Assembly: GCA_016209715.1 (NCBI GenBank) | Contig: JACQVP010000063.1 | Coordinates: 1-39,940, forward strand | Length of the DNA: 39,940 nucleotides | Direction: 5' to 3' | Origin: Candidatus Omnitrophota bacterium | Lineage (GTDB): Bacteria; Omnitrophota; Omnitrophia; Omnitrophales; Omnitrophaceae | Part shown: positions 15,031-33,042 of the stretch, piece by piece | Position numbering within the stretch: the first letter of the stretch is position 1 | How the letters are laid out: every line of letters begins with the position of its first letter | Notes under the pieces: model-generated | What the model saw: only the letters and a program-made list of their open reading frames with translations | Databases searched by the model: none | What the model was told of the DNA's origin: nothing | Translations under genes and position numbers: made by a program

Positions 15031-15459
15031 TCAGTCGATAAAGCTGGAATATTTGAACCAGTAGGCGCAAAACGCTCGGGCAAATCTCACCAGTTCGCCG
15101 TAGCCCGAAGGCTTCCGGACGTAGCTGTTGGCCCCCATCCGGTAGGACTCGAGGATGTCGCGGCGATCGGCGGAGTTGGTGAAGACGACGACGGGAACAT
15201 GCTGGAAACGGACGGCGGAACGGAGGCGCTTGAGGACTTCCCGGCCGTCCACCTTCGGCATATTGAGGTCGAGGAGCACAATGGCCGGCAGGACGGCCCC
15301 GTCGGTCTGGTTGAAAAAGTACTCGAGGGCCTCCGCGCCGTCTTTCTTCCAGTCCAGCTCCACCTCCGAGGCGCAGCTCTCTTTGAAGGCGTCGCTCATC
15401 AGCGAGTAATCGTCTTCGTCGTCGTCAACGACCAGGATTTTTTTCCTAAACGGGCTCAT
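15031..15459 (-). CDS. Single-domain response regulator (Rcp1-like)
   Basis: LVVDDDEDD, LLDLNMPKVDG, GANSYVRKP; GGAGG upstream of ATG 15459. Confidence 0.9.
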   Translation of the reverse strand: MSPFRKKILVVDDDEDDYSLMSDAFKESCASEVELDWKKDGAEALEYFFNQTDGAVLPAIVLLDLNMPKVDGREVLKRLRSAVRFQHVPVVVFTNSADRRDILESYRMGANSYVRKPSGYGELVRFARAFCAYWFKYSSFID

Positions 15460-16972
15460 GTCCGCCCTCCCCGGCACCCACGGGAAGCGTCACGATGAAC
15501 GTCGCCCCCCGCCCTTCCGCGCTCTCCGCACGGATTTCGCCGCGATGATAATTCACGATTTTTTGGCAAATCGACAGCCCGATCCCCGTCCCTTCGTATT
15601 CGTTCTTACCGTGCAACCTTTGAAAGGGCTGGAAGACCTTGTCCGCGTATTTTTGGTCGAAACCGATGCCGTTGTCCCGGACGCGGATCTCAAACATGCC
15701 GTCCTTGGCCTGGCTTTGGATGCTGATCTCCGGAGGGGTCCCCTTTTTGGCAAACTTAATGGAATTGAGGATCAAGTTCTGGAAAAGGTGCCGTATCTGC
15801 GCGCCGTTGGCCCTGATCACGGGCAGATCCCCAAGGGTGATCCTGGCGCCGGATTCCGAAATCTTGACGTCGAGGTCCGCGAGCAATTCGATCAGCACCT
15901 GGCGCAGATCGGTCCTTTCGAACACCACCCGCCCGCTCGCCAGCCGCGAAAACTGGAGCAGGTCCTCGATGACTTTCTTCATCCTCTGGCCGGCGGCGTT
16001 GATGCGCTCCAGGTATTCGCGCTCGCTGCCCTTCAGGTCCGCCGAGGACGACACCCTCTCGCTGAACGAAATGATTTTACGGAGCGGCTCCTGAAGGTCG
16101 TGAGAGGAAATATAGGCGAATTGTTCCAATTCTTTATTGGTGTTGGAAAGCTCCTCGTTCCTGAGCCGGAGCTCTTCGGCGTAACGGGCGATGTCCTGCT
16201 CGGCCTTCTTTCGATCGGCAATGTCCACGATCGAGCTCAAAACAAAGACCCCGTCCTGCGTGGTGATGGGATTCAGGCCGATCTCGACCGGGACCTCGGT
16301 CCCGTCCTTTCGCAGCCCGAACAAATCCCGCACGGCACCCATGGGCCGGACTTGCGGAGAAGCGAGAAAGCCGGCCCGGTGGCCGTGATGAGAGCGGCGA
16401 AACCGTTCCGGCACGAGCATCTCGATCGGCTTGCCCAGGAGCTCGCTGCGTTCATACCCGAAAAGCTTCTCCACCTGCGCGTTGGCCAGGACAATATTGC
16501 CTTCACCGTTGACCATGATCATGGCGCTCGGCGCGGCCTCGGCCATCAGAAGCAAGCGCTGCTCGGCTTCGTTCCGGTTCGTCAAATCCCAGGAAATGAC
16601 GAAGAATCCCGGATAACCGCCGGACGGGTCCACCGGCCGGATCACCACGCGGGCCCAAAAGCGGCTTCCGTTTTTTTTCAACCGCCAAGATTCCCCTTCA
16701 TAGCGGCCGTTGTTCCGGGCCTCCCGGAGCGCCTTTCCCGGAACCCCGCTGGCGCGCTCTTCTTCGGGAAAAAAGAGGGAAAAGTGCCGGCCCAACACTT
16801 CCTCCCGCAAATATCCCTTCATTTTGAAAGCCCCCGCATTCCAGCTCCGGATGATGCCCGCTTCATCGACCACATAAACCGACGAATCTTCCCATTCTTC
16901 GATGAGCTTTCGAAAGTGCTCGTCGCCGATCTGGAAATCCAGATTGCTCACAGGGCTTCTGTCGTCCGACAA
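15446..16972 (-). CDS. Cytoplasmic double-PAS sensor histidine kinase
   Basis: Two PAS domains; H-box SHDLQEPLRKI, N-box NLILNSIKF, DNGIG, GTGIGLSIC; TTG start after AAGGAGG. Confidence 0.92.
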   Translation of the reverse strand: MSDDRSPVSNLDFQIGDEHFRKLIEEWEDSSVYVVDEAGIIRSWNAGAFKMKGYLREEVLGRHFSLFFPEEERASGVPGKALREARNNGRYEGESWRLKKNGSRFWARVVIRPVDPSGGYPGFFVISWDLTNRNEAEQRLLLMAEAAPSAMIMVNGEGNIVLANAQVEKLFGYERSELLGKPIEMLVPERFRRSHHGHRAGFLASPQVRPMGAVRDLFGLRKDGTEVPVEIGLNPITTQDGVFVLSSIVDIADRKKAEQDIARYAEELRLRNEELSNTNKELEQFAYISSHDLQEPLRKIISFSERVSSSADLKGSEREYLERINAAGQRMKKVIEDLLQFSRLASGRVVFERTDLRQVLIELLADLDVKISESGARITLGDLPVIRANGAQIRHLFQNLILNSIKFAKKGTPPEISIQSQAKDGMFEIRVRDNGIGFDQKYADKVFQPFQRLHGKNEYEGTGIGLSICQKIVNYHRGEIRAESAEGRGATFIVTLPVGAGEGGHEPV

Positions 16973-17041: not shown

Positions 17042-17977
17042 CTATTTGGGCAAATCGCCGGGAGAGAAGGCGGAAAGAAGGGCTTGATTGGTGGGGTACT
17101 TCTGCATGAGTTCGACCAGCACCCGGGCGGCCTCCGGGGCGTCCATCCCGGCCAGGCCTCGGCGCAGGATCCTGATCCTTTGCAGCTCCTCCGGATCGAG
17201 AAGGAGCTCTTCCTTGCGCGTGCCGCTGCGGGAAATGTCGATCGCGGGAAAGATGCGCCGGGAGGAAATATCGCGGGAGAGGACGATTTCCATATTTCCG
17301 GTTCCCTTGAATTCCTCGAAAATCACGTCGTCCATCCGGCTCCCCGTCTGGATGAGAATGGTCGCCAGGATGGTGAGCGACCCGCCGTTCTCGATCTTGC
17401 GGGCCGAGCCGAAAATCCGGCGCGGCACTTCCAGCGCGCGGGAATCCACGCCTCCGGACAGCGTCCGGCCGCTGGAGCGCCTTTCCACGTTGTGCACCCG
17501 CGACAGCCGCGTCAGCGAATCAATGAGGAGCACCACGTTCTCGCCTTTTCCCGCTTCCTGATAGGCTTGGCGCATCAGCCGGTCGGCCGTCTCGATATGG
17601 TGGTCGTAAGTTTCATCCGAAGACGAAGAGCGCACCTCGGCCGGGACGCTACGCTGAAAATCGGTGACTTCTTCCGGCCGCTCGTCCACCAGCAGGAGAT
17701 ACAATTTGGCCGCCGGCGCCGAAGCCGCGATCGCCCGGCTCAAATGCTTCAGGATAGTGGTCTTGCCGGACCCCGGGGGCGCCACGATAAGCCCGCGCTG
17801 GCCCATGCCAATCGGGCAGACGAGGTCGATCGCGCGCATGGTGAATTCGGAAAGCCCCGCCTCCAGCCGGATCCTGGGCGACGGGTCGACGGGAACGCCG
17901 GAGAAAAAAGGGTCCGCCGTCTGCTGCGGCCGCTGGAAATGTTTTCGGGAATGCCCGGGGGAGTCGTGTCGTCTCAT
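17042..17977 (-). CDS. rho: Short Rho-family ATPase lacking the N-terminal RNA-binding domain
   Basis: PIGMGQRGLIVAPPGSGKT, LVDERPEEVTD, DSLTRL, GRTLSGG, EEFKGTGNME, SGTRKEELL; only 311 aa. Confidence 0.85.
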   Translation of the reverse strand: MRRHDSPGHSRKHFQRPQQTADPFFSGVPVDPSPRIRLEAGLSEFTMRAIDLVCPIGMGQRGLIVAPPGSGKTTILKHLSRAIAASAPAAKLYLLLVDERPEEVTDFQRSVPAEVRSSSSDETYDHHIETADRLMRQAYQEAGKGENVVLLIDSLTRLSRVHNVERRSSGRTLSGGVDSRALEVPRRIFGSARKIENGGSLTILATILIQTGSRMDDVIFEEFKGTGNMEIVLSRDISSRRIFPAIDISRSGTRKEELLLDPEELQRIRILRRGLAGMDAPEAARVLVELMQKYPTNQALLSAFSPGDLPK

Positions 17978-18040: not shown

Positions 18041-21000
18041 TCAGGCGGCAGTCGAGATCAGCCTTTCGGACTCGGCGAACCGGAGCAGGTCGGCGATCAG
18101 CCCCATGAGCCGGAACGCCAGATCGTCCGGCGCGCGGGGGAAGCCGTTCGAACCCGCGTCGGCGAGTTGCCGGCGAAGCGTGCTGAAAAGAACCGTTTCG
18201 ACGAACCCGACCAAAAGCGGCAAAGGCAGGGCGCGGCTGGCCGCGCGGCCGAGATGGATTCCCCGTTCGCGCAGGACGGATCCGGGCCCCAGCGCCACCG
18301 GCGTTTCCTCGGAGGCGATAAAGAGCCCGGCCTGCTGAATTTTCCTTCCCGTCACGGGCTTACGGTCGGCGTGACCGATCAAGGCCACGGGAACCCGGAG
18401 GGCGCGGATCCAGTCCAGGGCTTCCGGATCGACGACCGGATAAGAAACGAGCAGTCTCGCGGTTTTGGCGATACGTTCCAAATAAGAAGAGGCCTCGCCC
18501 GTGAACGCGGCGCGGAGGATTTCGTAATCAAAACCGTATGCCCGGGATTCTTCCAGAGACACGGGAGAAAATTCCAAGGCCTCGAGGTCGAAACCCTGCG
18601 CGGCGCGGCGGCCGGAAGCGGCCATGAGCCGGCGCGCCTGTTCCAGAATTTGAATCCGCTCCGCGAGATCCCGGCCGAAAAACCAGGCCAGGCGGGCCCG
18701 ATCCTGCGCGGTGAGAGGGGCCTCGGCGGCCGGGCTTTCCCGCGCGGAAGCGGGCAGGCCGATGAAAAGCGCAAATTGGACCGTGAGAATCAATGCTTCG
18801 GCCTCCCGCTTCGGGACGGCCCCGGCGGATTCCGCCGCCAGACGGCGCGCGAGCGCCGGAAAACCTTGCGCTTCGTCTCTCAGCCATTCAAAAAAATCGG
18901 CGCCTTCCCTTGCCTCAAGGCCCCGTTCGAAACCCTCCCGTAAATTCCGGACAAACGTCTCGGCCCGGACTATTTCCGAATCCGTTTCTTTTTTCCATGC
19001 CGCGACGGCCCCGGCAAAAATGCGCCCGGCTTCTTCGTCGAAAAGCCGCGCCGGCAGATCCAGCGACCGCCACAGCGCCCGCGCATCGGCGCCCAGCGAT
19101 TGCGCCATGCGGGCTTCGATCTTCGTAGGAATGCCGCGTTGCTCCAGGGCCTGTTTCAGACGGCCGTTCGCCGGATCGGACGAGCCCAGGACCTCGGCCA
19201 CACGGCGCCGGAGACGGTCCAACTCATCATGAGTGAGGTCCTCGCGGGCGGTCAAGCGTTCGATCGCCGCCAAGGTCCCCCGCTCATCCGACCCCATGAG
19301 CCGCTTGAGGAGGGTGTCTTCGTCCCAGAATTCTTCTTCTTTCTTGAAGGAGCCGGTATCGATGAAGCGCAATTTGCCGGAACGGTCCAGCAGAAAATTG
19401 AGGGGATTCAGGTCCCAGAGGAAATATCCCCTGGCCGCGTACTTCGCGACCAGCTCGCGAATTTGCCGTTCCGCTCCCGCCGCCATCTCGGGATGGAGTA
19501 CCAGCATGTCGGCGGCCGGCCTCTCATCCAGAAATTCCATCATCAGGATAAGCGACCGGCCCGTCTTGTCCCGCACCGTCCCGAGGAGCCAGGGAGCCGC
19601 CTCGATGTCGTTGGCCTGAGCGAATCGCAGACTTTCCAGGTCCGTCTGAAGGTTCCCGGCGGCGACGGCCGCCGATTTCGCCGTCCCGAATTTCTTTCCG
19701 GTCTCCGATTCCGCCGCCGCCGTTTTTCCGCCCACGATTTTGACGGCGGCGACCCGCGTCTCCCGGGTCCAGGGCAGCGAATATTCCACGCGATAGACGT
19801 CTCCGAATCCGCCGTCGCCGGCCCAGCGGAGCGCGCGGACGGTCAGCCCGCCCTTCTCCAAGGCCTGCCGGAGGTAATCTTGCTGGTCTTCGCCGGGACG
19901 GGGGCGCCTGAACCGGATGTCCGTTTCGGCTTGATCGGGACGCACGACGACCAGAGTGATGTCGTCCAGCCGGAGATTCATGTCCGAGAAAATTTCTTCG
20001 AGGTCCGCGTCGGGAAGAGCGGCGATTTCGGACGGCTCGGGCATCCGCTCCGCGAGATCCGCCGGAAGCGCGTTCGGATGGGCCGCGGCCAATTTGCCCC
20101 GGCCCTGCGGCGTCATTTTGAACATTTCCCGGGCGATCCGCCGCGCCACGCGGGGCTTGTCCAGGCTGACCAAAAGATGCGACATCGCGCGGATGAGCGC
20201 GGAGGTCCGGCGGACCAAATGCCGCGCCATTTCTTCAGCCGAAGGAAGCGGCTCTCCGCTCGCGACCCGCTCCTGAACGAAGCCGTCGGCCATCGCATAA
20301 AGAGTGGCCTCCTGCCCGAGTTCAAGCATCCGGCGCAAAGCCTCATAATGCCGGGCAGGCTCTTCGCGGAGCGCCGCGGCCCGTTCCTCTTCGTCCATTT
20401 CATCCATCCGCGCGAAGGCCTGCGCCAAAAGCGTCTCGGTCTGCAAGAGAGAGTCCATCAGCCCGTCCGTGGAATAAATCAGATAAGACGGAAATTCGAA
20501 GGGATTGACGGGGACGGAAACCGGCCGCACGTCGCCGAGAGGGACTTTCTGGGGCAACCCGAGCGGGGCGAAAGTGATTTCCTGCTCTTTTTTCGCCAAA
20601 GAGGCACTCGCGCCGGAGGAAGCCACCAGGCCGATGACGGGATTGCCGCCGGCCTGAAGCAGGGTGAGCCGGCCGTTTCGCCGGTTGATCACGTGCAGGG
20701 ACACCAGGGTCATGAAGTGCATGGCGTCCAGCAGCTCCTTCATCTCCACCCGCTCGGGCCCGTCACCCTTTCGCTGAATTTCCACCGGCGGAAGCGCCTG
20801 GATTTTCGCTACCTGTTCCCGGCTGAGGCCCCGGGCCAGCGCCGTGATCGAACCGGGAAGATCGTCCAGGCCCTTGACGCGGAGCACATCGAGTAAGCGG
20901 GCCAGCCCTTCGCGCGCCGGCTTGAGCCCGCGCAGCTCCGCGAGGTAATAGGCCACGTTCACGGCATCGATCGCATCCATATAAGCGAGGAGCGCGTGAT

Positions 21001-24000
21001 TCAAAAAGAGAATGAATTCAGTCGTGATGGCCGCGATTCTTTCTTCGCCGGCGGCCTGGATCCGGTCGGCCAGTCGGCCCCGGCCGGAAACCGGGCTCTC
21101 GATCCCGGCGGTTTCGTAGATCCGTATGGCCTCATAGAGCACGTGATTGATCCGGGCGGACGTCATGTCATGCCCTGCCGCGTCCATCAAAAGCACGACC
21201 TCGTACTTTCCGTCCGCGCTCAGGGAAAGATAGTGCCCGTCGCCGCCGTAGGCGTCGTTGAGCGGCTTGGAATAAACATGAGAGCCGGCCAGCATGGATT
21301 TGAAGCGCGAGGCCGAACGGCGTATGTCAGGCAAAGAAATCGAATCGAAGAGCGAGACTTCTTCTTTCAGCCGTTCCAGCAGGGCGGCCTGATATTCGGA
21401 TGGGCCCGTCACCTCCGGTTTTTCAACGAGAGCGCCCAGGGAATTGCCGAAGACGCTCTCGAGGTCAAAGCGCCCCTCATAAGTCAGCCAGGAAGTCGTG
21501 CCCCGGCCTTCCGGACCGGACGGGGTGACGGCAAATCCCCAGCGGCTGTCCGCGGAAACGGGGCCCCGCTCTTCCATCAAACGCGCCGCGCTGAGCGCCC
21601 CCAGCACATTGCCGGCGTCCGTCAAAGCCGTGCGACCCTGCGGCGTGACCGCCAGATAATGAAATCCCGCGCTCAGGCCGATCTTGGCCAGCTCCGGCAT
21701 CTCCGCGAAAACCCGAGCCCCGTCCGACGTCCTCCCGGTCAGGCTCATCACGCCGTAGGGAGACAGATTTTCGGCGGCCATATTCGCGGAAATAGCGCTG
21801 CCCGGCGTTCCTTGACTGACGGCCGCGAAGGCAAAATTGGCGAGAGGACCCGCCAGAGCGATCTCCTGAAGCCGTTTCGGGTTTTTAACGGCCCACGCGT
21901 CGAGCGTGGGATATTCCGCGGTGGGAACGAACTGCCGCCCCATGTCCACCCCCGCAAAATGAAGCGGCATCACGAACCGGCCCCGGCTCAATTTTCCGGT
22001 CACGAGGCCGGAGCCCACCCCGAGGGCCAAATTGCCCCAGCCGTAACCGTAAATCCGAGAAACTTCGGGGGCCCGGAAATTGCCGGGCGCGGCCAAATGC
22101 ATTTTTTGGGCATGCGCGAACTCATGAAAATAAAGAGACGGCAGGGGAGCGAGCGCCGCCGTCAAGAGACGCCGGGTGTCGCCGGCAGGCACTCCCCGGC
22201 GGGCCCAGTCCCGGTCCAGGGAATGCAGGGCATAGTTCGCGCCGATCGAAATCGCCAAAGCGGCCGCCCATTTTTCTTTGGCCTGCACGGCCGCTTCGGG
22301 AGCCGCGGAAACCGCGGACAAGAATTGGCCGAAGAACAGGGACACGGCCAAGACTATGGCCGCCGTCCTCCGCCGGAGCGGGGATTCCCGCCGCTCGCCC
22401 AGAGCCGACGCCGCCGGTAAGGATTCGAAGGCGAGTTGCGGCCATCCCGGAACGAAGGATGCCTTTTCGGCCGCGGCGGAAGCGCGGACTTTTTTCATCA
22501 TCGCGTTGTATCCGGCGCGCCGTTTTTTCCGGTATTGAAATCCGTCGTCGAGGTACAAATTTTCGGCGGCCTCGTTGCCGGCTTCGACTTCCAGGACCAG
22601 GCGCGTCCTGCCCTCCTCGCGGGCGACCTGTTCGGTGGCGGCGAGCAACTGGCGCCGGGTCCCGGGATCGGGCCGGACGGCCATCATCTCGATCTCAAGA
22701 TAGCGGTCCCCCGTGTTCGGGATTTCGGATTCCGGATTGTTCACGACATACCCCACGACTTGCCCGTCGGCAATGGCCACCACGCTCCATTCGCCGAGTT
22801 CGTCGCGTTGCATCTCCAGCACAATGTCCTGATTGATCCCCAGGATCTCGCCCTTCAGAAAGGCCTCCGCGGAGGCGAGATCCGAGATCCGGTAAAACCC
22901 GTCTTTCAGGCCCGTGACCGCGCCCAGTGACGACGCCGTGCCTCGGGCCCCCTTGGCCGGGCCCGCCGCGCGATGCCATTCCGCTTCGGCGGCCGCCCGA
23001 AAAGCAGTGAAATCGGCCTGCGCCAGGAATTGATTCACCCGGTCCCGGTAGGCCGCGAATTCCGGGGTTTGGCTGATCGCGGGATGGCGCCCCAGGCGAT
23101 CCACTTCCACTTTGCGGCTGCGCACCGCCCCGGCGAATTCCTCCTCGCCCAGAAGGGCGGCGAATTCCAGCTCGAAGCGCAGGACGGAAAAATCCTGATG
23201 GAGCGTGAACCCGCCGAGCAGGACCTCGTCTCCCGCGATGTTATCCCGGGCGAACTCACTCTCTACGAGTTCGTGAAACAACGCGCTCTTGCCGATGAAA
23301 AATCCATTTTCTCCGAGTTCTTTTTCCCGCTCGATTTGGCCGGTAAACAGATACATGCCGGGGCCGCGGATTTCGGGAGACTCAAACCATTGGGTCCCGG
23401 CAAATTCCTCCGGGGCCCGGAACGAGTCGCCTGCCTTCTCCCTGTCCTCCGCCAGCTGTTGCCGGAGCCGCTCGATTTGCCGGAAGATTTCGTCCGTCAC
23501 CGTGACTAGGGCGTAAACGCCCGGCCCGGCGAGGCCGGCAACTTCAATCATCCCGAACGCGCGGCCGAAGTCCCCGGCGGGAACCTGTCGCAATTCGTCC
23601 AGGGACCGATAGCGGGAGGCGATGTTTTTCCAGACCGCGGCGGCGGCCCTTTCACGACGCGCTTGCATCAGTCCCAGCGCGTCGATGAATCTTCCGGCCA
23701 GGCGGTGTTGGGCGGGATCCCGGGCCTCCGAAAGCCCGGCGTCGCTGACGGCAAAAGCGATTTGATCGCCGGGATACAGGACACTGATCAAATTATAGTC
23801 CGCGCCGTCCACCATCGGCTGGAGGACCCCCAGGCGAATCAAATCTCTGATGTCGGCATCGGTAAAATCGGCGCGGTTGCCGAGCAAAAGCTCCCGGATC
23901 GCCGGGGCAATGGCCTCAAGCGTCCGCGAATCGCCCTGAAGATCGGCAGGGATCGTTTTGGCTCCGTATCGAAGCGTGACGGCCGAACCCAGCGCCGCGG

Positions 24001-25945
24001 CGGCGAGAGGCTCTCCCCGCGGGCGGGCCCGCTTCGGGATCTGCCCGCGCAAAACGTTTTCGAACAAGCCCGGCCCGTCCGCGATCATGTTGTCGAGCGA
24101 AGCGGCCAGCATCGATGCCCGGAACCGCCGCCCCAGTCGGCCCAGCTTCTTCCACGATTGTTCCCGAATGCGGCGGACGGAACGGGCGCGAAAAGCGGCC
24201 CATTCCGGTTCCGCCGCCGCGGACAATTGGTCCTTGGCCCGGCGCGAATCCGAAGATCCGTATTTTTGGGCGTATTCGGCCGCCAGGCGGTCAATGTAAG
24301 GCGTGTATTCCGCCGCTTTATCCAAACGTCCCTGCCGGCCCAAAGCTCCCAGCAGATCCCGGCGCCATTGCCGGAGGATCCGCTTCAGATCGGGCTCATT
24401 CAGGCCGTCCGTCAGGGCCTTCGCGGCATGCTTCAGGAAAGCGTCGTAGGCGGTCGTTTCGAGAAATGATTTATACGACACGTCTCCCATCAGCACCGGC
24501 GCATACCGGTCTGACCCCCGGAGCGAATCGATCCGCGGCGTAATCAGCGCGTAGGAATAGCCCTTCGCTTTGAGGCTCTCGAAAAAACCCCCGGTGTGAA
24601 AGCCCCCCGCCAAGACCACGACGGAGCGCGCCCGGGTCTTTTTGAGCAAACGGCTCAGATTGTTCTCGAGGGCCCCGTCGCGCGCGAGCGCCGTGCGGTA
24701 AAATTCCTCGGCCGGCTCCAGCAAATCCGCGCGGGAGAAAAAGTCGAGAACGGCCCCGCGCTTTTCTTGATAGGCCTTCCAATCCTCGCGGCTCATCTCG
24801 AGCTGGGCCAGGCGCCGGAGCCAGATCAAATATTCATAGCGGGAAGAAATCCGTTCCGCTTCCGGGCCGGAGACCAGTCCGCGCTCAGTCTCCCGGAGAA
24901 GGCTTTCGATCTCGCCGAAAACGCGGCTGCCTTTGATTGCGGCCACCGAAGCGGCCTCGTCGAGCAGCTCTTTTTGCGCGGGCGTCCATGCGGCGGGTAT
25001 CTGCCGGGACAAGGCCAGCCGGGAAAGATATTTCAGATAGGATGCCGTGTCGAGCCGGCCGGTCATGAATTCCTGATGGCGGGCGCGGGCGATTTTTAAT
25101 TGCCGCGCGCTGAACCGGCGCCCGTGCGAGCGAAGGAGTTCCCGGCCCAGCTCTCGCGCGGATGCCGCCAGTTGATCCGCGTCGAGCGCTTCCGTCCGGC
25201 CGAGAGAAGCAAGCAGGCGGGACAATTCCGGATACCGGCCGGTTTTTCCCCGCACCGCCGGAGATTCGCCGAGAAAGCGCAGGAACTCGAGCCAATCCAG
25301 GCGGTCGTTCCGGAAGGCGTCCGCCTTCTCGTGAAAGGCATTGTGGCCGGCCGTGTACACCCGCTTTCTTTCCGCGTCCAACCGTGCGCGCAAATCTTCA
25401 AGCGTGCGGTTGATTTCCTCCTGTCCGGCCGCAGACCGGAGGTAAGCCCGGTAATTTTTTTCGTATAAGCGGGTGTCTTCAAGGCCATAAAAATCAGCCT
25501 CGGGACCGAACACAGCCGCGAGCTGGGCCCCGGTGACTTCTCCCCGTTCGAGATAGCCCCGGAACGCCAGGCGCTTTTTCCTCGACGCGGGAAAGGCGCG
25601 CAAAACCGCCGGATCGATGCGGCCCGCTCCGCCTTCCAGCGCCACGAGCCGGACGCCGCAGGCCCGATTCAAATACCCGATCAAGTCGCGGATATGAATT
25701 TGCGCGTCCACCGTCGCGTGGGCGTCCTGAATAAAAATCACGAAGGGTTGATCGCTTGCCGGCGCGCGGAATTCCCGGAGCGTTCCGAGTTCGGGCGGCA
25801 CGGTCAAACGGCCGGAAAGATAAAAACCTTCCGCGGCCGGGGCGGACGGAACGGTAGCGGCCGGCGCCATCTGAGCGGGGAGGAAACACGCCAATATAAA
25901 TAATGACAAAAATTTTCGAATGGGAACTGACATCTTAATCAACAC
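18041..25945 (-). CDS. Giant secreted multi-module protein (TIKI/EreA-like N-domain, GNAT, M50 protease, PP2C phosphatase, Ser/Thr kinase) with repeated [AG]x[SA]LG linkers
   Basis: 2634-aa ORF, N-terminal hydrophobic signal; motifs IQDAH/ALEG/GGFH, NEAAENLY..GF, HEFAH/AGPLAN/NLSP..SDG, DAAGHD/TDG/DDITL, GDGGFG/VAAVK/DLNPLN/IDTG; alternative ATG at 25933. Confidence 0.85.
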   Translation of the reverse strand: MLIKMSVPIRKFLSLFILACFLPAQMAPAATVPSAPAAEGFYLSGRLTVPPELGTLREFRAPASDQPFVIFIQDAHATVDAQIHIRDLIGYLNRACGVRLVALEGGAGRIDPAVLRAFPASRKKRLAFRGYLERGEVTGAQLAAVFGPEADFYGLEDTRLYEKNYRAYLRSAAGQEEINRTLEDLRARLDAERKRVYTAGHNAFHEKADAFRNDRLDWLEFLRFLGESPAVRGKTGRYPELSRLLASLGRTEALDADQLAASARELGRELLRSHGRRFSARQLKIARARHQEFMTGRLDTASYLKYLSRLALSRQIPAAWTPAQKELLDEAASVAAIKGSRVFGEIESLLRETERGLVSGPEAERISSRYEYLIWLRRLAQLEMSREDWKAYQEKRGAVLDFFSRADLLEPAEEFYRTALARDGALENNLSRLLKKTRARSVVVLAGGFHTGGFFESLKAKGYSYALITPRIDSLRGSDRYAPVLMGDVSYKSFLETTAYDAFLKHAAKALTDGLNEPDLKRILRQWRRDLLGALGRQGRLDKAAEYTPYIDRLAAEYAQKYGSSDSRRAKDQLSAAAEPEWAAFRARSVRRIREQSWKKLGRLGRRFRASMLAASLDNMIADGPGLFENVLRGQIPKRARPRGEPLAAAALGSAVTLRYGAKTIPADLQGDSRTLEAIAPAIRELLLGNRADFTDADIRDLIRLGVLQPMVDGADYNLISVLYPGDQIAFAVSDAGLSEARDPAQHRLAGRFIDALGLMQARRERAAAAVWKNIASRYRSLDELRQVPAGDFGRAFGMIEVAGLAGPGVYALVTVTDEIFRQIERLRQQLAEDREKAGDSFRAPEEFAGTQWFESPEIRGPGMYLFTGQIEREKELGENGFFIGKSALFHELVESEFARDNIAGDEVLLGGFTLHQDFSVLRFELEFAALLGEEEFAGAVRSRKVEVDRLGRHPAISQTPEFAAYRDRVNQFLAQADFTAFRAAAEAEWHRAAGPAKGARGTASSLGAVTGLKDGFYRISDLASAEAFLKGEILGINQDIVLEMQRDELGEWSVVAIADGQVVGYVVNNPESEIPNTGDRYLEIEMMAVRPDPGTRRQLLAATEQVAREEGRTRLVLEVEAGNEAAENLYLDDGFQYRKKRRAGYNAMMKKVRASAAAEKASFVPGWPQLAFESLPAASALGERRESPLRRRTAAIVLAVSLFFGQFLSAVSAAPEAAVQAKEKWAAALAISIGANYALHSLDRDWARRGVPAGDTRRLLTAALAPLPSLYFHEFAHAQKMHLAAPGNFRAPEVSRIYGYGWGNLALGVGSGLVTGKLSRGRFVMPLHFAGVDMGRQFVPTAEYPTLDAWAVKNPKRLQEIALAGPLANFAFAAVSQGTPGSAISANMAAENLSPYGVMSLTGRTSDGARVFAEMPELAKIGLSAGFHYLAVTPQGRTALTDAGNVLGALSAARLMEERGPVSADSRWGFAVTPSGPEGRGTTSWLTYEGRFDLESVFGNSLGALVEKPEVTGPSEYQAALLERLKEEVSLFDSISLPDIRRSASRFKSMLAGSHVYSKPLNDAYGGDGHYLSLSADGKYEVVLLMDAAGHDMTSARINHVLYEAIRIYETAGIESPVSGRGRLADRIQAAGEERIAAITTEFILFLNHALLAYMDAIDAVNVAYYLAELRGLKPAREGLARLLDVLRVKGLDDLPGSITALARGLSREQVAKIQALPPVEIQRKGDGPERVEMKELLDAMHFMTLVSLHVINRRNGRLTLLQAGGNPVIGLVASSGASASLAKKEQEITFAPLGLPQKVPLGDVRPVSVPVNPFEFPSYLIYSTDGLMDSLLQTETLLAQAFARMDEMDEEERAAALREEPARHYEALRRMLELGQEATLYAMADGFVQERVASGEPLPSAEEMARHLVRRTSALIRAMSHLLVSLDKPRVARRIAREMFKMTPQGRGKLAAAHPNALPADLAERMPEPSEIAALPDADLEEIFSDMNLRLDDITLVVVRPDQAETDIRFRRPRPGEDQQDYLRQALEKGGLTVRALRWAGDGGFGDVYRVEYSLPWTRETRVAAVKIVGGKTAAAESETGKKFGTAKSAAVAAGNLQTDLESLRFAQANDIEAAPWLLGTVRDKTGRSLILMMEFLDERPAADMLVLHPEMAAGAERQIRELVAKYAARGYFLWDLNPLNFLLDRSGKLRFIDTGSFKKEEEFWDEDTLLKRLMGSDERGTLAAIERLTAREDLTHDELDRLRRRVAEVLGSSDPANGRLKQALEQRGIPTKIEARMAQSLGADARALWRSLDLPARLFDEEAGRIFAGAVAAWKKETDSEIVRAETFVRNLREGFERGLEAREGADFFEWLRDEAQGFPALARRLAAESAGAVPKREAEALILTVQFALFIGLPASARESPAAEAPLTAQDRARLAWFFGRDLAERIQILEQARRLMAASGRRAAQGFDLEALEFSPVSLEESRAYGFDYEILRAAFTGEASSYLERIAKTARLLVSYPVVDPEALDWIRALRVPVALIGHADRKPVTGRKIQQAGLFIASEETPVALGPGSVLRERGIHLGRAASRALPLPLLVGFVETVLFSTLRRQLADAGSNGFPRAPDDLAFRLMGLIADLLRFAESERLISTAA

Positions 25946-31116: not shown

Positions 31117-33042
31117 GTGAATTTCTTCCGGGAGCAGGAACGCGCCCGCTCGAAGACCCGCTGGCTCGTCCTCTTTTATCTCATCACCGTCGGGCTGATC
31201 ATCCTCGCCGTATACCCCGCCGTCCTTTACGCCCTCACTTTCATTGATCAGGAGCGCGCCTTCCGGTTTCATTCCCTCGCCTTCCCGCAAAATTTTTGGG
31301 ACCCGGCCGTTGGCCTCGGGACATCGCTCGCCGTCCTTGCGATCGTGCTGATCGGGTCCGTGGCCAAAATCATCGAATTGAGCCGGGGAGGCCGCGCCGT
31401 CGCGGAATTTCTCGGGGGCCGGCTCCTCCCGCCGGGAACAACGGACCCGGAAGAGCGGCAGGTCCTGAATATCGTCGAAGAGGTAGCCATCGCGTCGGGG
31501 ACCGGCGTCCCTCCCGTGTACCTGCTCGACGAGGAAAAATCGATCAACGCCTTCGCGGCGGGATTTTCCACGCGCGACGCGGTCATCGGCGTCACCCACG
31601 GGGCCGTCAAGCTCTTGTCGAGGGACGAATTGCAGGGCGTGATCGCCCATGAATTCAGCCATATCCTGAACGGCGACATGCGCCTGAATCTCCGCCTCAT
31701 GGGCATCCTTCACGGCATCCTGATGATGACCGTCATCGGGCGCGGCCTGCTGGATGTCTGCCGGCCCCGGGGCTCCCGCAAACGGGGAGGCGGCGGGGGA
31801 GGCATCCTCGGCGCCGTCGCCATCACCGGTTTCACATTTTGGCTGGTCGGCTGGATCGGAGTTTTTTTCAGCCGGCTCATCAAGAGCGCCATCTCGCGCC
31901 AGCGGGAATCGCTGGCCGACGCCTCGGCCGTCCAATACACCCGCCTCCCGGTCGGCCTTGCCGGCGCGCTCAAGAAAATCGGCGGCCTGTCACACCGCTC
32001 CGTCCTCGAGCATCCCCGGGCCGAAGAGGCGAGCCACCTTTATTTCGCCAAAGGTCTCGCGCTGGCCCGCCTGTTCGACACGCATCCCCCGCTCGAGCAG
32101 CGGATCAAACAGCTGGATCCCGCCTTCGACGGCGCCTGGCCCCTGGTCAGATATCCCGAGAAGCCGCGTCCCGTCATCGAAAAGCCCAAACCCCCGCTCG
32201 CCGTGCCTTCGGCCGCGGCCCTGCAAGTGAACGCCCTCCTCGCCGGGCTCGGCCAATTGAACGAATCCCATCTGGCATGGTCGGCCTCGCTCATCGCCGA
32301 AATCCCGGAATTCATCCGGGAGAATTTAAGGGACGCCGTCGGCGCGCGCGCCGTCTTCTATTCTCTCCTGCTGGAACCGGCCCGCGAAGAAACCAAGAAA
32401 ATTCAGCGCCGGCATCTTTTTCAGCACGGCAACTATCTCGTCTACCAGCGCCTCTTGAAAATCGCCCAGGCCGCATCGGCCCTGCCCGTCCGCCTGCGCT
32501 TGCCGCTCGTGGACCTCGCCCTGCCGTCCCTCTCGACGCTGTCGCCGGCGCAATACGCCATGTTCCGGAACGACACGGAGGTTTTGATCGCCGCGGACGG
32601 CAAAGTCTATCCTTTTGAATTGGCGCTCAAAATCGTGGCCCTGCATCATCTCGACGGCGTATTCGGGAGGGAAATGAAGCGGGAAGCGGCGGCGGGTGAA
32701 AAGGAAATCCTCGAGGCGGGAATGGTTCTTTTCGCGTTTCTCGCGAACACCGGCCATTGCGGAAACCCGGCCAAAGCCGAGGCCGCGTTCCGGGAAGCGG
32801 CCGCCCACTGGGGCGAAGGCGCCCCGGCCGTCGCATTCAAGGCCTCCGACACGGCCGATCCCGGCTCCGTCGAGCAAGCGCTCTCCGTCCTGCAGGGATT
32901 GAAGCCCGCTCAAAAGAAAGTTTTTCTCCGCGCCTGCGCGCGCTCCATCCGAAGCGACAGCGTCTGTCTTCCCGAAGAAATCGAAGTGGTCCGCGCCTTC
33001 GCCGACGTTCTCGACACTCCCGTCGGCCCGGTGTTGGGCTGA
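31117..33042 (+). CDS. M48/HtpX-like membrane zinc protease with long C-terminal extension
   Basis: INAFAAG, IAHEFSH, ISRQRESLAD, THPPLEQRI; follows lemA. Confidence 0.88.
   Translation: MNFFREQERARSKTRWLVLFYLITVGLIILAVYPAVLYALTFIDQERAFRFHSLAFPQNFWDPAVGLGTSLAVLAIVLIGSVAKIIELSRGGRAVAEFLGGRLLPPGTTDPEERQVLNIVEEVAIASGTGVPPVYLLDEEKSINAFAAGFSTRDAVIGVTHGAVKLLSRDELQGVIAHEFSHILNGDMRLNLRLMGILHGILMMTVIGRGLLDVCRPRGSRKRGGGGGGILGAVAITGFTFWLVGWIGVFFSRLIKSAISRQRESLADASAVQYTRLPVGLAGALKKIGGLSHRSVLEHPRAEEASHLYFAKGLALARLFDTHPPLEQRIKQLDPAFDGAWPLVRYPEKPRPVIEKPKPPLAVPSAAALQVNALLAGLGQLNESHLAWSASLIAEIPEFIRENLRDAVGARAVFYSLLLEPAREETKKIQRRHLFQHGNYLVYQRLLKIAQAASALPVRLRLPLVDLALPSLSTLSPAQYAMFRNDTEVLIAADGKVYPFELALKIVALHHLDGVFGREMKREAAAGEKEILEAGMVLFAFLANTGHCGNPAKAEAAFREAAAHWGEGAPAVAFKASDTADPGSVEQALSVLQGLKPAQKKVFLRACARSIRSDSVCLPEEIEVVRAFADVLDTPVGPVLG

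Follow-up and report, generated by a model that had tools for sequence, protein, structure and literature searches.

The window described here is the whole analysed stretch of 39,940 nucleotides from a Candidatus Omnitrophota bacterium (contig JACQVP010000063.1, positions 1 to 39,940 of the forward strand, assembly GCA_016209715.1). On its minus strand it carries a giant open reading frame (ORF) of 2,634 residues counted from a GTG start (18041-25945), whose translation consists of an N-terminal signal, a head domain and a series of cassettes set between [AS]LG junctions. One of these cassettes, residues 1184-1499 (21449-22396), looks like a self-contained export unit, since it opens with a signal-peptide-like segment right behind a junction and continues into a domain bearing the motifs of the M50 (site-2 protease) family. 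We propose that the giant is cut at this junction and that the module is exported on its own, and judging from the sequence we hold this proposal to be about evenly balanced. We consider it likely, again from sequence comparison, that the module derives from the M50 family.

All features of the cassette lie on the minus strand. It is preceded by the junction A-S-A-L-G (residues 1179-1183, 22397-22411), which forms the end of a GNAT cassette. Behind it come a basic n-region, ERRESPLRRR (residues 1184-1193, 22367-22396; the 15-residue N-flank has a net charge of +3), an h-region of 16 residues, TAAIVLAVSLFFGQFL (residues 1194-1209, 22319-22366; Kyte-Doolittle mean 1.99-2.16), and a c-region, SAVSA (residues 1210-1214, 22304-22318), which is followed by APE and has a V-x-A site of the signal-peptidase-I type, where the -3/-1 rule predicts a cut between A1214 and A1215. 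The M50-like part then has HEFAH (H1274, E1275 and H1278; residues 1274-1278, 22112-22126), a predicted zinc-binding and catalytic motif that aligns to the HExxH of small M50 proteins. LAGPLAN (residues 1364-1370, 21836-21856), with NPKR before it, corresponds to the AGPxxN motif of M50 both in a partial Pfam M50 match (profile positions 70-95) and by hhalign. ENLSPY...SDG (residues 1392-1409, 21719-21772) is the putative counterpart of the M50 NxxPxxxxDG motif, with ENLSPY at residues 1392-1397 (21755-21772) and SDG at residues 1407-1409 (21719-21727). The module closes with a C-terminal extension (residues 1410-1499, 21449-21718) that has a conserved G(R/K)FD...F at its end, just before the next junction, G-N-S-L-G (residues 1500-1504, 21434-21448). 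A preliminary description of the window, made from the letters alone, had listed ASALG, the basic stretch, the hydrophobic core, SAVSA/APE, HEFAH, LAGPLAN and NLSP...SDG; translation and DNA agree in placing each of them where it had put them. The stretch with the junction and the signal is identical in contigs from two more runs of the same study (X2, 22191-22597; X3, 22162-23246).

Four copies of the module are known, all within giant ORFs and none standalone: the one in the window giant (P0001) and those in P0003, G178 and L005. A phmmer search of 1.84 billion representative proteins at E<=0.001 gave two matches, the protein itself and P0003 (1,915 residues, 40% identity), and word-based homologue searches gave nothing beyond these two. 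The BLAST match between them stops 2 residues from GNSLG. When 401 genomes of the phylum were searched in six frames, the module came up in two, the source genome and G178, a member of the same family, where the open frame around it has at least 4,185 residues; a scan of genome contigs returned the same G178 contig. A metagenome scan yielded two real loci, L005 (open frame of at least 5,301 residues) and L006, which is the gene of P0003. Four further metagenome loci, L007-L010, were rejected as chance matches of 45 residues; L007 proved on inspection to be out of frame, and the other three were judged by their having the same match range. Among the 1.84 billion representative proteins, the 401 phylum genomes and the two contig collections, no standalone homologue of the module was found. 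The copies are 39-48% identical with the motifs kept, except that those of G178 and L005 are 89% identical. All of the cassette features are invariant or conserved in kind in the four copies (alignments A2 and A3), so the feature set is beyond chance.

The signal-peptide anatomy that had been proposed for the segment, with a positive n-region, a 16-residue hydrophobic core and V-S-A/A, recurs as a pattern in all four copies. Flank charges are +2 to +4 on the N-terminal side and 0 to -1 on the C-terminal side, from which an N-in/C-out orientation is predicted. The core has 14-17 residues and an invariant LAxxL (LAVSL or LAVTL in three copies, LAATL in L005), and each copy goes on with V-x-A and then A or E (AVSA/A, AVAA/E twice, RVDA/E), followed by a spacer of very variable length. 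In three of the four the n-region starts right behind the junction, with the core 8-10 residues after SLG or ALG. Between G178 and L005 the h- and c-regions differ by three synonymous changes and one non-synonymous change, while 6 of 8 residues of the n-region are changed with retention of the positive charge. To judge by these sequence comparisons, the signal is under purifying selection.

The segment starts at residue 1184 and not at the N-terminus of the translated chain, and it would become N-terminal only if the chain were cut at the junction. The preliminary description had considered that it might be an ordinary transmembrane helix conserved in standalone M50 proteins. The position of the segment speaks against this, as the M50 core does not include it: in our comparison the 22 small M50 proteins begin at the HExxH helix, and the N-terminus of the template aligns behind the module's signal. 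The other part of that idea found no standalone homologue of the module to be compared with.

A stronger argument for cutting is topological. The giant already begins with a basic and hydrophobic N-terminal signal, MSVPIRK-FLSLFILACFLPA-QMAPA (25856-25933, minus strand), which is oriented in-to-out, and the next clear hydrophobic segment, 1,160 residues on, is again in-to-out. P0003 has two in-to-out signals in series within 100 residues. In L005, whose N-terminal signal is presumed, the same pattern spans 3,300 residues, and the single hydrophobic stretch that intervenes is marginal and has acidic flanks. As no clear helix separates them, two consecutive signals of this kind cannot both be satisfied by a chain that stays whole, and this conflict favours polyprotein processing. 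The preliminary description had argued that an internal signal would normally work only after cleavage; taken alone this is too strong, because internal signal-anchors exist, and the serial N-in/C-out topology supports the same conclusion better.

The N-terminal signal depends on where translation starts. An ATG at codon 5 is a likelier start than the GTG, and the stretch 5' of it is AT-rich and intergenic-looking. A start at this ATG fits the signal-bearing N-termini of the homologous heads, 28 of 28 of which, among those that could be evaluated, are basic and hydrophobic. The public gene call, P0002 (2,609 residues), begins at M26 and so drops the N-terminal signal (window positions 25868-25945).

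On our proposal the giant would be cut at or beside the (A/G)(A/S/Q)SLG junction on the cytoplasmic side, the TIKI/EreA-like head being a candidate for the cutting enzyme. After the cut the basic stretch would be the n-region of an ordinary N-terminal signal of the Sec type, and the M50-like domain would be exported alone, trimmed by signal peptidase at V-S-A/A, and would act as a zinc metalloprotease. The GNAT and PP2C phosphatase neighbours would stay inside and the head and the M50-like domain would be outside, each where its chemistry fits.

A number of observations weigh against this proposal. The candidate protease, the head, carries an export signal of its own, a poor fit with cutting on the cytoplasmic side. 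Internal signal-anchors are known to function uncut in polytopic proteins, and V-x-A sites are easily found in alanine-rich sequence. In P0003 the signal stands about 30 residues after ALG, and the linker used there is mostly SGEAAADAAG. Finally, of about 43 SLG sites in the genome's giants only 1 has a signal of this kind behind it. The preliminary description had suggested looking for similar post-linker signals in paralogues. Among the 73 [AS]LG sites in the nine longest ORFs of the genome, 4 have a hydrophobic stretch (a 15-mer with a Kyte-Doolittle mean >2.0) within the next 45 residues. A basic N-flank is present only at ASALG; of the other three sites, one lies within a membrane helix, and in two the positive charges come after the helix. 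Signals of this kind are thus specific to particular cassettes and not a general cassette feature. As a separate observation, an ORF on G000 contig C53 has at residues 5 and 617 SLG followed directly by a membrane helix with positives on its C-terminal side, an orientation opposite to that of the signal studied here.

The main rival to processing is a chain that is never cut. The segment would then serve a single huge membrane protein as an internal start-transfer helix (signal-anchor), with the M50-like domain, and all that comes after it as far as the next helix, lying on the other side of the membrane from the GNAT cassette. Polytopic proteins commonly contain start-transfer helices, more hydrophobic segments are found in the giant near residues 2384 and 2572, and in related giants blocks of several helices lie downstream of the module. 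Topology surveys also treat Omnitrophota giants as membrane-anchored single chains, as far as the available text of one of them goes (10.64898/2026.06.07.730766). Against an uncut chain stand the signal at the start of the giant, shared with the evaluable heads, the lack of a helix before the second in-to-out signal, and the same conflict compressed into 100 residues in P0003. An uncut chain would moreover put the GNAT or the PP2C cassette outside the cell, and a role as a helix and nothing more leaves unexplained the conserved V-x-A and the constant distance of 8-10 residues from the junction. We therefore regard an uncut signal-anchor protein as possible but doubtful on this sequence evidence.

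Two other explanations dispense with an exposed signal or with proteolysis. The signal could be a functionless relic of a separate secreted protease gene that was fused in together with its signal peptide, as the preliminary description had allowed when it spoke of whole-gene capture, and the cassettes do resemble captured genes (GNAT, PP2C). The changes between G178 and L005, three synonymous to one non-synonymous in the h- and c-regions and a charge kept through an otherwise rewritten n-region, disfavour a relic, as do the retention of charge bias and V-x-A in all four copies at 39-48% identity and the failure to find a standalone homologue in any of the collections searched; we call this explanation improbable. 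Alternatively the cassette could be made separately from an internal translation start, with the signal N-terminal from the outset. G178, which reads ...PRMKRMIAPV..., has ATG codons just before the hydrophobic core, and P0003 has an M directly ahead of its internal RRxFLK motif. The window has no ATG, GTG or TTG between the junction and the core, and L005 and P0003 have no M ahead of the signal, so an internal start is not conserved, and we give it very little credence.

The preliminary description had also recognized an M50 motif set, and profile comparison upholds this. HE[FY]xH, LAGPxxN, ENLSPY and SDG are invariant in the four copies and stand in the M50 order. The templates were profiles built on canonical M50 proteins encoded in other genomes of this order, one of 2 and one of 22 small M50 sequences. 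With hhalign the four-sequence profile of the module matched the 2-sequence template with a probability of 92.5%, over 116 columns running from HExxH to AGPxxN, and the 22-sequence template at 78.6%; controls (for each template one reversed and ten column-shuffled) gave at most 0.5%. A permissive hhalign run extended the alignment to 205 columns and to positions 2-225 of the 228 of the small-M50 profile, with the three motifs in register and ENLSPY...SDG aligned to NLiPiPPLDG.

Several results weigh against an M50 origin. The loop from P to DG in the third motif is 10 residues long in the window copy, 7 in P0003 and 18 in G178 and L005, where M50 has 3-4. Matches to Pfam PF02163 are partial, with 10.5 bits for the window copy and 14.7 bits for P0003 at a cut-off of 27.2, and a hidden Markov model (HMM) of the 22 small M50 proteins misses the module at E<=10 among 7,601 ORFs. 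Against an RseP-type M50 profile hhalign gave only 1.4%. An AlphaFold2 (AF2) model of the module, made from a 2-sequence alignment, is unusable at a predicted local distance difference test score (pLDDT) of 34.8, which leaves the fold unconfirmed. These failures suit an alternative in which the domain is unrelated to M50, being some other HExxH zincin whose two further motifs are M50-like by chance, and so do the empty PDB sequence searches (single-sequence and profile searches with the module returned nothing relevant) and the absence of membrane helices from the M50 part. The three motifs, in M50 order and spacing and invariant in every copy, the profile-profile scores of 78.6-92.5% against controls of at most 0.5%, and collinearity with nearly the whole small-M50 profile tell against an unrelated zincin, which we think unlikely. 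A six-frame Pfam M50 search of the source genome gave no match. In the ESM Atlas the best score for the module was 0.82 with no family, and a cluster carrying M50B came at rank 12 (0.79, 36% of members), a lead at most.

The small M50 or site-2 proteases (PF02163, and forms of about 200 residues in the same order), whose studied members are SpoIVFB, RseP and M. jannaschii S2P, share with the module the order and spacing of HExxH, AGPxxN and the putative NxxP...DG, and the profiles are collinear. The module differs from them in having an additional N-terminal signal and spacer, the loop of 7-18 residues within the third motif and, at the C-terminus, an extension of about 90 residues, and in lacking hydrophobic motif helices, scoring far below the Pfam cut-off and being always embedded in a giant ORF.

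The preliminary description had called the domain an intramembrane protease, and this part of it is not supported: the motif-bearing helices are not hydrophobic, and the sole membrane-like segment is the signal. Each of the four modules has exactly one membrane-like segment, the signal itself, against 3-7 in the small M50 proteins (n=22). The Kyte-Doolittle mean of the 18 residues before HExxH is 0.44-0.67 in the four modules and 1.82-2.84 in the 22 small M50 proteins, and before NxxP it is -0.20 to 0.49 in the modules and 1.01-2.03 in the 22 canonical M50 proteins. Loss of hydrophobicity in the helices that bear the motifs points to a soluble or peripheral enzyme rather than an intramembrane one, and on this sequence evidence the module is probably an M50-derived domain, soluble or peripheral, on the far side of the membrane.

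Other giants of the Omnitrophota have M50 cassettes that are canonical and hydrophobic. Giant frames of three genomes contain four matches to the M50 model, of which one exceeds the cut-off. In L042 (G092, contig C18), residues 572-1400 of a frame of 3,011 residues hold two tandem hydrophobic canonical M50 cassettes, each behind (G/A)KSLG, and M50-type HExxH matches occur also in giant frames of G122 (2,254 residues) and G017 (62,866 residues). Like the module, the cassettes in G092 (two copies), G122 and G017 are HExxH cassettes in giant frames, and those in G092 stand behind SLG; unlike the module, they lack V-x-A, have a Kyte-Doolittle mean of 1.15-2.40 before HExxH and carry a membrane helix ahead of the HExxH one. 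BLAST found no similarity between them and the module, and hhalign gave 4.1%. The presence of hydrophobic canonical cassettes in other giants suggests that the present module is a de-hydrophobized offshoot.

Junctions were studied in the giants of the genome, taken as its eight ORFs of at least 1,900 residues with one tandem-repeat ORF left out. SLG occurs 43 times in these eight, against 11.9 +/- 3.4 in shuffled sequences (none of 2,000 shuffles reached 43), and the five other orders of S, L and G occur 12-18 times each. The density of SLG is 18.3 per 10,000 residues in the giants and 3.4 in other ORFs of at least 600 residues. From 40 sites in the genome's giants the junction consensus is [A/G][A/S/Q]SLG[Q/A/E/G/R]. 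Its codons are mixed, TCN and AGY for Ser and CTN and TTG for Leu, which indicates selection on the peptide. When giants are matched to one another by BLAST, 14 of the 45 ends of matches are no more than 20 residues away from a junction, with 6.4 expected; 11 of 5,000 random draws reached 14, and the ends are not independent. In the related giants G178 and L005 an SLG-bounded cassette is found at different positions.

Two nearly exclusive junction codes were seen within one order, SLG in the source family and in G092, and R-(S/A)-E-x-R in most other families, when the giants of G000 (contigs C10, C50, C53, C62, C96 and C103) were compared with loci L069-L095. R[SA]ExR occurs 0-1 times per giant in the source genome, G178 and L005. 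Of 27 segments with a head that were sampled from the order's other genomes, 22 have it 1-4 times, and SLG is mostly found 0-1 times in these segments. This distribution indicates that the junction code is lineage-specific. P0003 has a third linker, SGEAAADAAG, in two exact copies and one variant, TGEADAVGG (L006, 9560-15307). About 35 residues after the second exact copy, at residue 847, it has a twin-arginine-like motif, S-M-R-R-R-T-F-L-K, with a hydrophobic core; a Tat signal at this RRxFLK was rejected (TIGR01409, E=0.23, below cut-off). G000 contig C75 has an ORF of 1,946 residues made of tandem repeats of about 100 residues, FDVRGDKVLN(A/S)LGYDKKG...YWED..TAR.EDK(Y/F)LRKI.

The head domain (residues 31-653, 23987-25855, minus strand), with AAALG at its end, is predicted by AF2 and VIA-align to have an EreA/ChaN/TIKI-like fold. 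It is common to L005 and a second giant of the source genome. Its profile has matches in 96 of 96 genomes from the order, usually 10-20 in each, and nearly all of them stand at the beginning of frames about 570-11,476 residues long (loci L066-L095 among them). The AF2 model, built from 34 sequences, has a mean pLDDT of 82.1. Its top seven VIA-align rows include EreC (Z 7.7), HopBA1 (7.2), 2qgm (7.0), 2rad (6.7) and ChaN (6.7), all of them middling Z scores. We take these five to belong to one superfamily, presumably with TIKI in it. QDAH, EG and GGFH are nearly invariant in the head. Foldseek with the head model gave no match at E<=0.001, and the Pfam HMMs for TraB (PF01963) and ChaN (PF04187) gave none in the source genome at E<=10. 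Going by the modelled fold, the head is a candidate hydrolase or protease for the junctions. Across the order the head ends in a motif of the KP(S/A)(A/T)L type.

Polyproteins with an export signal right behind a cleavage site are familiar from viruses: the alphavirus capsid autoprotease exposes the signal of PE2, and flaviviruses have internal signals. The giant resembles them in that a single frame joins units of protein size, a junction recurs and an export signal stands right behind a junction, and differs in being a bacterial chromosomal gene with another junction motif and with a protease and a cleavage that are both putative. In multi-effector toxins of the MARTX type a built-in cysteine protease cuts between modules after Leu. 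The giant is like these in joining unrelated enzyme cassettes in one chain at junctions with Leu and then a small residue; unlike them it has by Pfam neither a C80-type cysteine protease domain nor RTX repeats, and its conserved head is EreA/TIKI-like.

The nearest published relatives are the Omnitrophota giants themselves (10.1101/2023.11.21.568195, 10.64898/2026.06.07.730766), which are from the same phylum and are the same type of long, modular, membrane-associated protein; the available texts name no cleavage points. In the first of these, as far as its available text goes, West-Roberts et al. (2023) propose cleavage of the giants and state that information on cleavage points is lacking. 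In the corresponding text of the second, a 2026 preprint, internal signal-peptide calls are downgraded as chunking artefacts. The words 'M50' and 'linker' are absent from the available texts of both, supplements aside. Neither a soluble M50 nor a bacterial polyprotein that has internal signal peptides turned up in a full-text literature search. Whether Omnitrophota giant genes give one protein or many is, in these texts, an open question in print. ASALG offers a sharp test. It lies 10 residues ahead of an export signal that is conserved, and the chain bears another at its N-terminus; for both to function, the chain has to be cut. An active site of the M50 type carried by helices no longer hydrophobic would, if true, be an unusual exit of an intramembrane protease into solution. 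A wider proposal, made tentatively and well short of an even chance, is that the giants are true bacterial polyproteins, in which the TIKI/EreA-like head or another protease cuts a lineage-specific code (SLG here, R-(S/A)-E-x-R in most sister families) and unmasks signals specific to certain cassettes, the present cassette being exported as the first known soluble descendant of a site-2 protease.

The M50-like module has an enzyme cassette on either side, both on the minus strand. Upstream, between SSLG and SALG, is a cassette with a GNAT acetyltransferase fold (residues 1009-1183, 22397-22921; PF00583, E=6.7e-9). Downstream is a cassette (residues 1505-2285, 19091-21433) with a phosphatase region of the SpoIIE/PP2C type (PF07228, E=1.1e-5, 25.9 bits at a cut-off of 25). 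Pfam applied to the whole giant reports GNAT alone, at residues 1054-1136, and a scan cassette by cassette adds the SpoIIE/PP2C phosphatase. The genes around the giant are housekeeping genes, among them FtsH, TilS, RuvABC and a PAS histidine kinase. Adjoining it downstream is a gene for a P-loop ATPase of the RecA type, similar to ATP-synthase alpha and beta subunits (17042-17977, minus strand); also downstream is the PAS histidine kinase gene (15446-16972, minus strand). A gene for an M48 peptidase of 641 residues is found at 31117-33042 on the plus strand.

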